In this document: positions 18,001 to 36,000 of the stretch, one piece after another
How positions within the stretch are numbered: position 1 is the first letter of the stretch
Layout: every line of letters begins with the position of its first letter
Source of the DNA: a plasmid
Reading direction: 5' to 3' (one strand)
DNA: 64,000 nt
Sequence record: NZ_CP109675.1
Position numbers: made by a program

Positions 18001-21000
18001 ATCAGCGGCGCCCGTAAACGTGCGATCGCATAGTCCGATAAGGATTCTTTCTCTGTCATCCGTTCAGGGCGAGACGGCATAATAATCTTGTCTGGTTCAT
18101 AGCGGCCGACAGCCGGAACTTGCGAGAAAATGTCCTGTACAGGAGGAACAAACTCACCCAGTTTACGAATAAGTTTATCGGTATCAAAGGCGTGTCCAAA
18201 CGCAGAAAGCGTAACGCCAGGACGTTCACTGTCCCAGCCATCCTTCACTTTTAGCTCGCCGCTCTCCTTTGTCAGGAACAGGCCTTCTTTCGCAAAACGC
18301 TGATGGAGAGAAGACCAGTCGGTCACCGGTGACTCCCGTAAACCAGCTATTGCCGTGTCAGCGATATATTCTCTCAGGCTCTGATTACGGCCACGTTTCC
18401 AGGCACTTTGACGATCGCGTTCAACAGAGGTACGACGAACAATACGATTATCAGGGGCAATCACATAGCAGCCATTGTCAGGTGAAAACCCATGTTTGAG
18501 CTCCAGTTCACGACAGGCCTTACTCAGTTTTTCCTGGCTGTAAGCAAGACGGTTAAGATAACCAGTCTCCGGATGTACGCGATTTACAGCGATGTGAACG
18601 TGGAGGTTATCCGTGTCAGTGTGAACGGCAGCAACGAACTGATGGCCCGCTAAACCGAGACGGGAAAGTGTATGGCTGACCGAATCGTAAATCTGTTCAG
18701 GGCGCGGACTTTCGTGCGACTGCCAGCTCAGAATATAGTGGAATACAGGGTCGCTTTTGTTATGGGCAAACTTCGTTTTACGTGCGGAGAACTCCATTTC
18801 TTCAGCTGCACTTTCAATTGATGTGCAATTGTGGAAACAGGTCACACCGTAAAAATTCACCCATTCCCCGCCGTCAGGCATCACGTCAACCAGCGAGATA
18901 AACGACTCATCACGCAGTTTAGTAGCGTAGTCAACCAGACGGGAAAAGCGGCTGCTGTGCGGCATTTCTGGCTTTGTTCCGGAAGCTCTAACGGCTTCCA
19001 TTAAATCATCATCGCGCGGCTCATCACGAACAGAAACGTACGAAACCAGGTCCCCAAAGGAGGACTTGCCGTCTTGTCGTTTCGGTGGAATAACCGGGAT
19101 CATGATGTTGTTCTTCTCTCCGTGCTAACCGTTGTTCATGAGTTTATTTCTGAGCGTGGTCGACAGTTCTGTTATTGCGACAAGGACCGTGGAGTATTCC
19201 TTATCACCCACTCGTTTCCCTTCAACAAAGAGATGCTTTTGCAGTCTCCCCAGCCTTAAAAGCTCGGTCATAAAGCTGTCGTCGATGAGTGAAATCATCT
19301 TTCTGTTCATCGCTGCGTTACGGATATAAGCCGATACGCTTTGCCCCACTGCTTCCGCTTTCTGTTCAATCTCTTCGATTTCATCCGGCGTGAATCTCAG
19401 GGTCTTGATTACGGTTTTCTGCCGTTTATCACTTCCCCTTCGGGATGCTTTGTCGCTCATGTGTGCTCCTTACTCGGGTGTCGGGGCGGAGCCCTGACCA
19501 GGTGGCATTTGTGATATCGTGCGTGCGCGGTATTACAAATGCACATCCTGTCCCGTCTTTCGAGTCATTATACGCTTCGCTGGCTGTTTCGCCTAGTGGC
19601 GATTTGACGGCATAGGCAGTGCGGAGCACTGCCACTTTTGAGTGGTCAATGTTATGATTTGGATGACAATATTCTGAAAGGGGTAAGAAGATGAGTAAGA
19701 AGGCGTTTTATTCAGATGAAGATATCGAGCTAGCAAAGGTTACTCTGGCTGGTTTACCGGATCTGACACCTCAGCGCAAATCACAAAAGGAATTTCTGGA
19801 TGCAATCCGTGATGACCTGTTAGCACTGGTAAAAACCAAAGGTTACACGGTCTCAGACATTAAAGAGACACTAAAAACCACGGGGTATGAAATCAGTGAG
19901 AGAGCACTTCGTGAAATCGTTCGTGATGCTGATAAAAACAAACCAGCCCGTAAAAATCGCAGGTCGACGGCAGAAAATTCGTCATCACCAACGAAATAAT
20001 TCCTGCATCCTGAAGATGTGATGTACTGAAATTTTTCTTACCAGGATGAAATATTTTTTCAGCCTGGTAAGAAGGGAGATGATATAGAAATTACCATTCA
20101 AAGGTCGGAACGTCTGCCAGCATTTCTCCCCATGAAGTAAAATGAACCATGCTGATGTCAGCCTTTATCATGGCAGTGTAAATCACTATTCTCGCCGCTT
20201 TTGAAATACCATGATGTTTCAGAATGAGAAGCGGATAACTGACGGCATCAACACGAATGATGTAACCCAGATCGGATTCATGGATCCATTCGCTTTCATA
20301 CTCGGCGTGACATAGTTCGCTCAGAATCTCGCTATCCCTCCGCGTAATATGGCTCAGACTACATTCCAGAACAGAACGCAAAACTTTGTGATTAAGTTCA
20401 GTACGCTGTCCCCATCCGAGCGATGCAGTAACATCCTCCCATGTCCATTTAGGGTTATCAGGAACCTGAGCAGTAAGCTGTTTAAATGGCAAGCTAAGTG
20501 CCGTCGACAGGTTCAACCCTGATGCAATAATACGCGGATAAAGTTCACTGGCTGTACATGAGGAAATCAGTTCTCCATTCACAAAGAGAGCTTCATCACC
20601 GTTATCAAGACGGATACAGGTGACGCCATGAGGCGCACGGGATATGTAGTGTGGCATGTTCCATTCCTTCCAAAAATGTGCCGGATAATACTCCGGCACT
20701 GTGTTATTAAATTACCGCCCCGTTGCAGGGCGGTGGTTATCAGGCGTACGCGCGGGAAAGCTCAAGCGTACTCAGGACGTGATCCCATTCAGCCCCGTTA
20801 AGTGCTGGAATATGGATCGGTTTATGAATACGCCCGCAACGGACAAGTGATGTCCCCAGTTGTTTCAGATGTGGCGCGATAGCGTCTGGTTTCAACGTTT
20901 CGCGGATTTTCCGTGGATGACGGGTTTTAACCCGCTCCTTTACAAAGTATTCGCGACATGCGACGATGAACTGGTCTTTCATAGTGCCTCCTCAGAGTCA

Positions 21001-33000: not shown

Positions 33001-36000
33001 CCGCCTCCGGATAATCAGGGTAAAACGTACCGTCATTGGCCGCCGGCATCCTTCTCGCCCGTTCAACCTGTGCCAGACGGCGAACGCCGGCGGCGTGGTA
33101 CTGCTCAAGCATCTCGATCCCGATATAGCGGCGGCTGGCTTCGGCGGCGGCCACGCAGGTGGAGCCGCTACCGGCGAACGGGTCAAGGACAATGGCCCCC
33201 GGACGCGTGAGCGATTCAATCAGTGGCCGCAGGCTCTGCACCGGCTTCTCCGTCGGATGGTGTCTGTTGCCCGTGTATTTCCAGGGGATCACGTCCGGGA
33301 TGGGGCGGTCCGGGGTTTGCGGTCGCCCCTTCGCGAGCAGGTAAGCGTTCTCATGGGTGTAGCCCACGAACGTTGATTTGGAGGCATAACTCTTCGCAAA
33401 AACGATATGGCCAACAACGCGGAACCCGGCCGATTTCCACGCATTGAGAAACAGATCTGCGCGGTTCCATGCGTAAAAGCTCACCATCAGACTGTCGTTT
33501 TTGAGTACGCGGTACATTTCGTGGCACGCTGGCTGAAGCCATTCCGACGAATTGTCCCCGGCCAGAGTGCGACCGGTACGGTCCTTAAAGCCAACCAGAT
33601 ACGGGGGATCGGTAAGAATAAAATCAACGGCACGTGCCGGAAAACGGGACATCACCTGCACGCAGTCACCCAGGATATAACGGGACATAGACACACTCCT
33701 CTCTGATATGCGGCACCCTGTTGCGCCGTGCCGCCACAAAAACCCGGCTCTGAGCGGAGGGCGCAGGGGCGACGCCGCAAGCCGCAGCGCAAGCCTTTCA
33801 CGGGCTGAATGCACCGTGAAAGGTGCGAACGGGTGAGGACGGAGACAACGTGAACCCTTGCGACCGCAGCGGCCGGGTTAGCGTGAAGGCACGGCGTTGA
33901 ACACGCCGCCGGCTGGCGGCAGAAAGGCGGAGGGCACCGACATCCTTTGGTACTGATTCTGGTAGCTGAAGTAGCCTCCCGTGTATGACAGAATGACCAT
34001 AAGTGCGTGTCAGTACACCACTTTGTAGGATCATAAGCCTGGTATGTTTTGGGACGCCTCCGGTCGGTGGCGTCCTTTTTTCCGTTAGCCCCCCTTTACG
34101 TGGTCGATAGCGAACTGCAATGTGTCCCAGTTAAAACCGATGCAGGCATCATGGCTGTGGTAACAGACACGCATGGCTTCAGCAATCTCCCCCTCTGTCA
34201 GGCTGTCATTGAGGGACATAAAGTCATCAGCCAGCCAGAACGTTCCCATACACAGCGCATCCTGCGGATACTGCTGTAGCCGTGCGATGTGATCTGCCAC
34301 GGTTACTCCCTCGCGGCAGGCAGATAGCGACGGCAGCACACGATCGGCAATGTCATTCCAGTTCCACTCTTCGTCCTCCGGAACTGCCTCTTGAATAGTG
34401 CCGGTTTCCACACCCGGCATCAGGGAAAGCTGCTCCAGCACCTCCCCCAGGTAAAGTCGTTCTCCGCAGGCATCCTCACTCCACAGATAATGGTTGTTGA
34501 TATACACGGCAAACTCGCCGTTGTTGAGTTCAATACAGGTCAGTCTGAACATGGCTGTGTCCTAAGCATCCGGCACCCAGTTGCACCGTGCCGACACGAC
34601 AGCCCGACTTCGAGCGGAAGATGCAGGGGCGACACCGGAGGCCGCAGCGCAGATAAACAGCGATGACGTTCTGGACGGTTCTCCCGCGAATATTGAGCGG
34701 GAGAACGACGGGAAGAATGGCATCAGGCGTAAAAATCTGCGACCGGGCGAGGATGGCGGCGGAGCGAACCCTTGCATCTGAAGCGATCGGGCTAAAGTAA
34801 AGGCACGGCGGGGAACTTCTTTAGGCAACATAGAGTTAAAAAATGGGCAAAGCAAAAACTTGAAAGTACACTCAATAAAGTAATAATACTGTATATAAAT
34901 ACAGTTCGGAGGTGCCTATGTTTGAATTATTGCGTGTCGATTGCGAGCCGGAAATTATCCCAATCCCTCTTTATAGCGAGGGATGCCCGGCGGGGTTCCC
35001 GTCCCCGGCGCAGGACTATGTCGAAGCCGAACTTGACCTCAACGATTACTGTATATCCCGACCCAGTTCGACATATTTTGTGCGAGCTATTGGTAATTCC
35101 ATGACTGATATTGGGCTACATTCTGGCGATCTGATGATTGTTGATAAAGCCGAAAATGCACACCACGGCGATATCGTTATAGCTGAGATTGAAGGTGAAT
35201 TTACTGTTAAGAGATTATTGTTGAAACCGAGACCAGGGTTACAGGCAATGAATCCAGCCTACCCTACTCTATGGCCAGAACCTGAGCAGCTACAAATTTT
35301 CGGTGTCGTAACTGCCTTTGTACATAAAACCCGGGGACATGACTGATGTTCGCCCTGGCAGATGTGAACAGCTTCTATGCGAGTTGTGAGAAGGTCTTTC
35401 GTCCTGACTTACGTGATAAACCGGTGGTCGTTCTTAGCAATAATGATGGTTGTGTAATAGCCAGATCGAAGGAAGCGAAACAGCTTGGGATCAAAATGGG
35501 GATTCCCTGGTTCCAGCTGAAGACAATGCAGTTCCCGGAGAAAGTGCTTACGTTTTCCAGCAATTATGAGCTTTACGCGAGTCTGAGCAACCGGGTCATG
35601 GCACATCTGGAAGAACTGGCGCCCCGCGTAGAGCAGTACAGCATCGACGAGATGTTCCTGGACATTCGCGGCATCGATGGCTGTACCGACTTTGAAGATT
35701 TCGGCCGGCAGCTGCGCGAGCACGTCCTAAGAGGAACCGGACTGACAATTGGCGTTGGGATGGGGCCAACAAAAACTTTAGCAAAATCAGCGCAATGGGC
35801 TTCAAAAGAGTGGCCGCAATTTGGGGGCGTGCTGGCCCTGACTACTGACAATCTTCGTAGGACGGAGAAACTGCTCTCACTGCAGCCAGTAGAGGAAATC
35901 TGGGGGGTTGGTCGCCGCATAGGCAAAAAGCTGAATACATACGGCGTGACGACTGCGCTACAGCTGGCGCGCATGAATCCTGCCTTTGTACGCAAAAACT

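Follow-up and report, generated by a model that had tools for sequence, protein, structure and literature searches.

The region at positions 19691-34860 of a 64,000-nucleotide (nt) stretch of plasmid NZ_CP109675.1 (hereafter, the window) raises the question of how a 15-kb block of mostly short genes comes to be expressed in a new host cell and what these genes do there. A preliminary description of the sequence had placed the block between an origin of transfer (oriT) and a umuDC-like operon and had proposed its short open reading frames (ORFs) as new anti-defense proteins. Our analysis indicates that this is very probably where the leading region of an IncI-like Enterobacter plasmid lies, related in mosaic fashion to those of F and IncI1 plasmids, with a proposed mechanism for early expression in which hairpins head the genes. 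The organizing feature, not mentioned in the preliminary description, consists of seven long hairpins, each located just upstream of a gene block. The earlier observation is largely correct and its interpretation sound but already published: the region is a further example of the published leading-region model and introduces no new principle.

Identity of the region and direction of transfer

The region is 100% identical over its full length to a segment of pEh7_3 (NZ_CP126853.1), a 97-kb plasmid of Enterobacter hormaechei, and likewise to a Yokenella plasmid. About a dozen Enterobacter and Mixta plasmids match it at 94 to 98% identity, and at least 5,000 plasmids in PLSDB match parts of it. 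Gene annotation was taken from the RefSeq coding sequences (CDSs) of the identical plasmid pEh7_3. Individual ORFs are designated below by "o" and their lower coordinate, and the positions of all features are collected in Table 1.

The 230-nt gap at 19461-19690 contains an inverted repeat (19505-19519/19528-19542), followed three bases later on the plus strand by ATCCTG (19545-19550), which we take to be the MOBP-type nick-site consensus. In BLAST searches, the oriT core is 84 to 86% identical to the same stretch of ~3,700 plasmids, mostly 90- to 120-kb E. coli and Salmonella (IncI1-like) plasmids and small mobilizable ones. The relaxase and mobA genes lie on the low-coordinate (lagging) side of oriT, and the island lies on the side transferred first. 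If the plus strand is nicked at oriT, transfer would proceed 5′ to 3′ to higher coordinates with the island entering first; the plus strand is the template of every minus-strand gene. The geometry of the repeat and ATCCTG bears out the earlier proposal that oriT lies beside the island and that the genes are read toward it from the first-entering strand. The 102-aa ORF next to oriT (19691-19999) has only a weak Pfam HTH_12 match and no NCBIfam match, and this MobC-like ORF is not leading-region cargo.

As had been described, nearly all genes are on the minus strand (21 of the 24 annotated CDSs in 19691-34860), the remaining three being the MobC-like gene, the gene of an XRE regulator, and an ORF within a hairpin that is probably spurious. 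The corresponding binomial probability of ~1e-4 assumes independent genes, which they are not; a fairer count is that of the seven transcription units, all of which point in the same direction. The reported absence of ssb also stands: the gene was found neither in the window (best tblastn E value, 1.8) nor in the other 32 kb, so that the absence extends to the whole plasmid.

Hairpins upstream of the operons resemble single-stranded DNA promoters

Transconjugant transcriptomes, obtained by RNA sequencing and 5′ rapid amplification of cDNA ends for pESBL and by RNA sequencing for F, revealed early induction of leading-region operons, reaching up to ~500-fold across pESBL and F (Wen et al. 2025, PMC12672017). 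In pESBL, a hairpin with mapped start sites stands at the head of each of six such operons that are strongly induced, and the promoters fall into class 1 (Frpo/ssi), class 2 (5′ of ardA and klcA), and class 3 (5′ of M.EcoGIX) (PMC12672017). For these homologous operons, the outcome is thus the opposite of a lack of early transcription.

A counterpart is found in the 697-nt gap at 28919-29615, in which 538 nt align with the F Frpo preceding ssb at 72% identity; identity to the second F Frpo is 71%. Its core (29119-29298) is predicted to fold with a free energy (dG) of -48.9 and a z score of -5.5. In addition, a repeat search revealed four copies of a 195- to 250-nt element. The first copy ends 25 nt upstream of the ardA start and forms a single long imperfect hairpin in the transferred strand. 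Copies 1, 2, and 4 are 67 to 72% identical to the F segment just upstream of a klcA-like gene (67% for copy 1), while copy 3 keeps both stem bases, has a shorter interior, and finds partial matches in 4,011 plasmids. Aligning the four window copies with the corresponding elements of two related plasmids and of F gave a consensus hairpin of 68 pairs, 21 of which are maintained in one or more sequences by compensatory changes on both sides. On these grounds, the four copies are assigned by sequence to the class 2 type of single-stranded DNA (ssDNA) promoter, the pESBL class being known here from its published description.

The two hairpins closest to oriT are more divergent. The hairpin at 23950-24265 has an AT-rich apex, CAAAAGTTTTTGCA...TGCAAAAAGTTTTGG, resembling that of the Frpo homolog at 29188-29218, and its agreement with class 1 is confined to the apex motif and position. 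A Lelliottia relative carries a 95% copy of the 29-kb Frpo homolog in this slot. The Lelliottia plasmid (NZ_CP077333.1) contains two class 1 Frpo homologs, at 7685-7954 and 12883-13162, each ~95% identical to the window copy. Because Lelliottia has two ~95% copies and the oriT-proximal slot of the window a diverged one, this pattern suggests that promoter copies are homogenized or replaced by recombination. The hairpin at 21127-21337 (~210 nt, in the gap 20983-21730) was detected in just 24 plasmids of PLSDB, each belonging to this MOBP lineage, and its homology to F is limited to a 29- to 39-nt box at 21404-21444. This hairpin could represent a fourth, lineage-specific class of ssDNA promoter.

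A conserved 29- to 41-nt box, GAGCGGCGC.GCCGGAACGGC.GCTGCAAGCG, itself a small hairpin, lies distal to the hairpins and is common to the lineage-specific element (21404-21444), the Frpo homolog (29432-29472), and both F Frpo regions (9183-9211 and 14572-14600 of the F segment compared).

A consensus scan found no σ70-like promoter upstream of the minus-strand operons, the sole upstream minus-strand match lying inside the hok/sok locus. The match to a known plasmid, the orientation of the genes, their homologies, and the structure and covariation of the hairpins were established directly; we infer transcription from ssDNA, its timing, and all protein functions as follows. The relaxase would nick the plus strand at ~19550, and the 5′ end would enter the recipient first, so that the 19.7- to 35-kb segment arrives first and single stranded. 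Seven long imperfect hairpins would then fold in the entering strand and mimic duplex promoters, from which host RNA polymerase would read toward oriT in a burst of seven transcription units. Synthesis of the complementary strand would remove the hairpins and end the burst. Among the products, ArdA would block type I restriction, the M.EcoGIX-type methyltransferase would methylate the entering strand, PsiB, with PsiA, would block RecA and the SOS response, and hok/sok would enforce retention. With ssb missing, the Frpo homolog would therefore fire directly into DUF905-parB-psiB-psiA. This arrangement would constitute a natural variant bearing on how far Frpo activity and PsiB function depend on plasmid single-stranded DNA-binding protein (SSB).

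Several observations weigh against this mechanism or its setting. No -35/-10 hexamers with at least 8 of 12 matches were found in the hairpins by a simple hexamer scan. For two of the hairpins, 21127-21337 and 23950-24265, the z scores are modest (-3.6), and sequence homology to validated promoters is slight or lacking. The ssb product stimulates Frpo (Samuel et al. 2024, PMC11541004), and since ssb is absent, host SSB would have to serve Frpo here. Finally, the MOB-suite/PLSDB label for pEh7_3 and its relatives is "mobilizable" rather than conjugative. Despite that label, pEh7_3 carries an IncI-like conjugation system, because Dot/Icm-type transfer genes (TraJ, TraO-Q, and DotH/I-like proteins, amounting to a full I-type system), a thin pilus (type IVb pilus), and a PilV shufflon are found elsewhere on it. 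Judging from these genes, the plasmid is probably self-transmissible.

Comparison with published leading regions

Leading regions have been described as hotspots of anti-defense genes, arranged in islands bounded by oriT and often umuDC, with genes on the T-strand and widespread Frpo-like promoters; one-third of the largest enriched families are uncharacterized and were proposed as anti-defense candidates (Samuel et al. 2024, PMC11541004). The region studied here occupies the same oriT-adjacent leading side, has T-strand genes and an oppositely oriented umuDC end, and shares the content of ardA, psiB/psiA, an orphan methyltransferase, a toxin-antitoxin locus, and Frpo-type promoters. It differs from these islands in the absence of ssb, which is among their most frequent members, and in the presence of seven hairpins within 15 kb, including four copies of a single repeat.

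As far as the oriT BLAST and the literature allow comparison with IncI1 plasmids (pESBL and ColIb-P9), the MOBP/IncI-type oriT and transfer system are the same, and so are the class 1 homolog, the class 2-type hairpin directly 5′ of ardA, and the methyltransferase operon with a hairpin of its own, at one operon per hairpin. However, the class 3 promoter of pESBL is reported to be unlike the others, whereas the methyltransferase hairpin of this plasmid is a shortened relative of class 2, a type that has spread to four copies here. Moreover, the hairpin at 21127-21337 matches none of the pESBL classes 1 to 3 by sequence, pESBL being known here from its description.

Local comparison with the F leading region (NC_002483, 53 to 66 kb) revealed ten common genes in the same order, with 31 to 84% amino acid identity (Table 1). 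Frpo likewise lies between the 63-aa ORF and DUF905 in the F gene order. In F, however, Frpo is followed by ssb, whereas the Frpo homolog is followed here by the DUF905 gene, and klcA takes the place occupied by ardA in this plasmid. F also has DUF932 and an SLT gene near oriT, is devoid of the HsdM-like operon, the theta gene, o34085, o20740, and the DUF5983 gene, and has a MOBF relaxase and oriT, versus MOBP here.

Close relatives of the plasmid differ by whole modules at hairpin boundaries. For example, an E. ludwigii plasmid is without the methylase-o32778-DUF1380 block, and in the Lelliottia plasmid, DUF932 is added and other genes precede umuD. The local peculiarities of the region are the four class 2 copies, the shortened class 2 element before the methyltransferase, the lineage-specific oriT-proximal hairpin, and the missing ssb.

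The short ORFs belong to known families

Family matches confirmed the preliminary assignments of ardA, psiB-psiA, the orphan DPPY methyltransferase, hok, and umuDC. The methyltransferase matches NF010253 with 431 bits (cutoff, 244) and has no restriction partner in the annotated neighborhood. M.EcoGIX is a single-strand-specific DPPY methyltransferase that protects the transfer/entering strand and has homologs in IncI1 and IncF plasmids (Fomenkov et al. 2020, PMC7736820); the F methylase has been described as one such homolog (PMC12672017). The sok RNA matches Rfam RF01794 (96.6 bits; gathering score, 59) at 24951-25122, where it overlaps hok. In the case of the proposed "ParB-like nuclease," the ParB_N and HTH_ParB domains are present, and nuclease activity is an assumption.

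The preliminary description listed twelve ORFs that were said to have good ribosome binding sites and no recognizable domain. All twelve are present with the same stop positions, and 10 are RefSeq CDSs. Most do have a Shine-Dalgarno sequence; the GTG at 20699, proposed as the start of the ORF at 20091, does not. This start is probably too far upstream, as RefSeq uses an ATG at 20657 with a Shine-Dalgarno sequence. Similarly, the start of 28673-29002 is ambiguous and probably too far upstream, RefSeq using a TTG at 28918.

The claimed lack of domains fails for five of the twelve, for which Pfam reports DUF5983 (20091; 2.2e-12), DUF905 (28673; 1e-21), DNA_pol3_theta (29616; 3.7e-31), DUF1380 (32300; 3.9e-14), and a DUF905-like C terminus below the cutoff (23640; 5.9e-4). 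The theta homolog is a clear housekeeping homolog among the twelve. Scans of all ORFs against Pfam, NCBIfam, and PHROGs left seven without a Pfam or NCBIfam family, and the PHROGs matches are all of "unknown function." Three ORFs without a Pfam family (30033, 31158, and 32778) have F-plasmid homologs and are therefore classical F leading-region ORFs; one of them, o31158, corresponds to a 258-aa F leading-region ORF, matches phrog_8919, and has no recognizable fold. Homologs of o23235, o34085, and o20740 occur in 1,457, 647, and 421 records, respectively, in mostly conjugative plasmids, and are always annotated "hypothetical." By these sequence comparisons, none of the twelve appears to be an orphan.

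These data also bear on the idea that the small ORFs are chance open frames in a noncoding, structure-rich region. Several open frames do pass through the repeated hairpins, but none of the twelve lies inside one, most have a Shine-Dalgarno sequence, and every one that was searched either matches a Pfam or PHROG family or an F protein or has homologs, 30 to 80% identical, on plasmids numbering from hundreds to thousands. We consider this idea extremely improbable for the region as a whole; on the strength of the homologs and Shine-Dalgarno sequences, spuriousness was rejected for the twelve and accepted for the frames through the hairpins.

Regarding function, it was reasonable to call the uncharacterized ORFs strong candidates for anti-defense proteins, but this is the thesis already published, and the listed ORFs are known families, not new candidates. 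In Supplementary Table 1 of Samuel et al. (PMC11541004), DUF905 ranks 2, DUF1380 ranks 7, theta ranks 43, an HsdM-annotated "DNA methylase" ranks 53, and DUF5983 ranks 72. No known anti-CRISPR was detected in the island, and a literature search returned nothing relevant on the functions of DUF905, DUF1380, and DUF5983.

A different explanation is that most of the uncharacterized ORFs are not immunity inhibitors but helpers in establishment or housekeeping (ssDNA protection, complementary-strand synthesis, replication fidelity, or partition-like roles), or else weapons or addiction modules directed against other mobile elements, their early expression simply reflecting early need. Indeed, one ORF is a DNA polymerase III theta homolog, and hok/sok is an addiction module. 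In F, an ssb-psiB operon context surrounds the ParB-like protein and DUF905, whose counterparts there by gene order, YfjA and YfjB, are expressed early alongside Ssb (PMC12672017). DUF5983 has been reported beside cbtA/cbeA toxin-antitoxin genes in prophages, DUF905 includes the cryptic-prophage proteins YkfF and YubL, and two structure predictions of unknown ORFs gave no informative fold matches, including to anti-CRISPR or anti-restriction folds. On the other hand, known anti-defense genes are statistically concentrated in these positions (PMC11541004), close relatives exchange modules at hairpin boundaries, a pattern expected of cargo in an arms race, and some relatives of the HsdM-like protein join its domain to the anti-restriction protein ArdC. 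We therefore regard the helper explanation as a serious contender that nonetheless falls short of an even chance. Under the leading-region model favored here, the other ~14 ORFs would be conserved leading-region families, some of them likely anti-restriction effectors, most plausibly the HsdM-like protein, while theta, the ParB-like protein, and DUF905 would more likely assist DNA processing.

In practical terms, the island offers a compact, well-delimited test set of seven hairpin-headed units with ~14 conserved genes of unknown function, each shared with other clinically relevant plasmids of the Enterobacterales, which number from hundreds to thousands. The one lead in the island that could repay experiments is the short HsdM-like family.

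A widespread family of short HsdM-like proteins

The 276-aa protein encoded at 22013-22843 had been described as an HsdM-like protein that stops before catalytic motif IV, which is essentially right: no NPPF/Y occurs anywhere in its sequence. Motifs X (GQYFTP), I (DPACGSAGM), acidic II (IDID), and III (GNTL) are present in the correct order, and RYTPVYY occupies the place of motif IV. Across 28 aligned members, down to 30% identity, the NPPF place holds an invariant Thr (usually Thr-Pro). The other invariant positions in these members are GQ.F of GQ(Y/F)FTP, the motif I glycine, the motif II aspartate, and a glutamine.

HsdM and the 276-aa protein thus have the S-adenosylmethionine (SAM)-binding motifs X, I, and II as well as motif III in common. 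They differ in that HsdM has NPPF/Y where the shorter protein has the invariant Thr, and in that HsdM of EcoKI is 529 aa long, making the protein about half its length, without the C-terminal helices that bind HsdS. Furthermore, unlike HsdM, the protein belongs to a large 230- to 300-aa family of its own on plasmids and phages (phrog_5696, which it matches end to end). Enterobacterales homologs are consistently 272 to 281 aa. An exhaustive profile search of a representative library returned 4,236 clusters at an E value of ≤1e-3 and 666 at ≤1e-30, and nearly all of the best 150 matches are 230 to 300 aa long and have the whole short architecture.

The family was found in 2,208 of the 72,556 PLSDB plasmids searched (~3%), with hosts ranging from Klebsiella to Acinetobacter, Pseudomonas, Xanthomonas, and Burkholderia. 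On Klebsiella IncF plasmids, the gene has the same oriT-proximal position and reads toward oriT. In Xanthomonas and Burkholderia, its neighbors are large ParB-like genes; the Burkholderia locus also has a Lar restriction-alleviation gene ~3 kb away. Three relatives of ~650 aa carry the HsdM-like domain at the C terminus, preceded by ArdC-N in all three, a zincin-like metallopeptidase in two, and a CbtA-like segment in two. ArdC, a protein that overcomes restriction by HsdRMS in the recipient, is likewise built from ArdC-N and a metallopeptidase (Gonzalez-Montes et al. 2020, PMC7213743). ArdC itself is absent from the window, where the HsdM-like domain stands alone. The relevant main-text passages of a survey of polyvalent proteins (Iyer et al. 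2017, PMC5512222) mention neither HsdM nor this domain.

An alternative is that the protein is an active adenine methyltransferase of the ordinary orphan kind, whose methylation protects the plasmid. It is named "N-6 DNA methylase" in RefSeq, has a Pfam N6_Mtase match (3e-10), retains the SAM-binding motifs X, I, and II, and is apparently classed as a methylase in the published family table, where the rank-53 family has a median position of 2 from oriT (PMC11541004). Yet the Pfam match is limited to residues 137-236 and profile positions 24-117 of 311, and the hhalign alignment with EcoKI HsdM covers only HsdM residues 125-187 (probability, 82.6%). A PDB sequence search with the protein alone found no match, and a PDB profile search gave a marginal HsdM match (E value, 0.08) over the same motifs. 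In addition, the catalytic (N/D)PP(F/Y) is replaced by the invariant Thr in clusters down to 30% identity, and because the protein ends ~30 residues past the Thr-Pro, the rest of the catalytic domain and the target-recognition/HsdS-binding part are missing. Neither hsdS nor hsdR was found near the gene in the annotated plasmid region. An active methylase is accordingly an unlikely explanation.

We infer instead that the protein is an early effector and not an active methylase, possibly an HsdM mimic or SAM binder. It is conceivable, though on balance doubtful, that it typifies a large, hitherto unrecognized family of catalytically dead "half methyltransferases" that act as early anti-restriction effectors, either by HsdM mimicry that poisons type I restriction-modification (or BREX or other SAM-dependent) complexes or by SAM sequestration. 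If the short family does act as an anti-restriction decoy, it would represent a new mechanism of type I restriction-modification evasion. In that event, the published family table apparently misclassifies it as a protective orphan methylase, and counts of leading-region "orphan methylases" would be corrected. A literature search did not find a paper characterizing the short HsdM-like leading-region protein. Separately, o23235, which has an "HPPM" motif, was considered as the possible missing half of a split methyltransferase and set aside, adjacency being the sole evidence.

Feature coordinates and further observations

Table 1. Features in and around the leading region, in window coordinates. 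F identity, amino acid identity to the F-plasmid homolog
Feature	Position	Strand	F identity	Remarks
MOBP relaxase	16404-19103			Just below the region; RefSeq annotation of pEh7_3
mobA/nikA-like gene	19125-19460	-		RefSeq annotation of pEh7_3
oriT core	19465-19572	+		Inverted repeat and nick motif; between mobA/nikA-like and MobC-like genes
MobC-like gene, 102 aa	19691-19999	+		Homologs in relatives annotated MobC (relaxosome accessory protein)
Operon 1	20091-20982	-		First to enter; o20740 (80 aa, no family) and DUF5983 protein (20091-20657, 188 aa)
Candidate lineage-specific hairpin	21127-21337	+		Upstream of operon 1; dG -39 kcal/mol, z -3.6
XRE-type helix-turn-helix gene, 87 aa	21731-21994	+		Annotated XRE family regulator in relatives
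Operon 2	22013-23912	-		o23640 (90 aa, weakly DUF905-like), o23235 (119 aa), o22884 (87 aa), HsdM-like
HsdM-like protein gene, 276 aa	22013-22843	-		Last gene of operon 2
Frpo-like (class 1-like) hairpin	23950-24265	+		Upstream of operon 2; gap 23913-24791; apex z -3.6
hok/sok type I toxin-antitoxin	24792-25122	-	84% (hok)	hok 24792-24953; sok RNA 24951-25122
Operon 3	25202-29002	-		DUF905, ParB-like, psiB, psiA, o25202
o25202, 76 aa	from 25202	-		Operon 3; overlaps psiA end
psiA	25423-26154	-	34%	E value 1.6e-57
psiB	26154-26576	-	48%	NCBIfam equivalog, 163 bits (cutoff 100)
ParB-like protein, 661 aa	26619-28604	-	51%	ParB_N and HTH_ParB domains
DUF905 gene	28673-29002 or 28673-28918	-	47%	Operon 3
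Class 1 ssDNA promoter (Frpo/ssi) homolog	29039-29557	+		Core hairpin 29119-29298; directly precedes DUF905 gene
Operon 4	29616-30767	-		ardA, o30033, doubtful 54-aa ORF, DNA polymerase III theta homolog
DNA polymerase III theta homolog	29616-29870	-		Operon 4
o30033, 63 aa	30033-30224	-	56%	F homolog is a 63-aa ORF
ardA	30267-30767	-		PF07275; residues 8-163 versus profile 1-154 of 155; E value 2.6e-33
Class 2-type hairpin, copy 1	30792-31041	+		Upstream of ardA; dG -74.3 kcal/mol, z -6.7
Operon 5	31158-31937	-	31%	o31158 alone, 259 aa
Class 2-type hairpin, copy 2	31955-32204	+		Upstream of o31158
Operon 6	32300-33688	-		Methyltransferase, o32778, DUF1380
DUF1380 gene	32300-32722	-	31%	Operon 6
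o32778, 73 aa	32778-32999	-	54%	phrog_4830
Orphan DPPY N6/N4 methyltransferase, 230 aa	32996-33688	-	72%	M.EcoGIX/F-type; operon 6
Class 2-type hairpin, copy 3 (short)	33708-33902	+		Upstream of methyltransferase; z -3.6
Operon 7	34085-34552	-		o34085 alone, 155 aa
Class 2-type hairpin, copy 4	34568-34816	+		Upstream of o34085; 98% identical to copy 1
umuD-umuC operon	34918-36617	+		RefSeq annotation; opposite strand; distal boundary of island

Several genes of the island are related to one another. o20740 (20740-20982) and o22884 (22884-23147) are paralogs, with 42% identity over 52 aa and a common C-terminal motif, IPA..G.EW.HVL.TLELSRA; the former directly precedes the DUF5983 gene and the latter the HsdM-like gene. 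The N-terminal ~70 aa of o34085 is homologous to the N terminus of the DUF5983 protein (hhalign probability, 95.9%). These two genes lie at opposite ends of the island and encode a common N-terminal domain with different C-terminal parts.

The XRE gene is preceded by two copies of a perfect palindrome, AAGTGCAGAATCTGCACTT (21638-21658 and 21692-21718), located 57 nt apart, which could be operators of an autoregulated repressor. Since a T-run comes after each on the minus strand, they could also serve there as terminators ending the HsdM-like operon.

Frames running through the repeated hairpins are found at 30760-31005 (plus strand; a "hypothetical protein" in RefSeq), 28975-29367, 33798-34034, 34562-34855, and 31938-32246 (minus strand; in the 362-aa extension of o31158). 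Three of the hairpin frames have the peptide RRAFTL.R.LQ.QGF...SSP in common because the DNA is repeated. Such frames are probably not genes.

The 54-aa RefSeq ORF at 29885-30049 is doubtful as a gene, judging by its GTG start without a Shine-Dalgarno sequence and its overlap with o30033; it holds a 27-nt direct repeat (29960-29986/30003-30029). Beyond umuDC (36621-40000), the annotation lists parM/parR-type partition genes, a second ParA-like ATPase gene pair, and a site-specific integrase.

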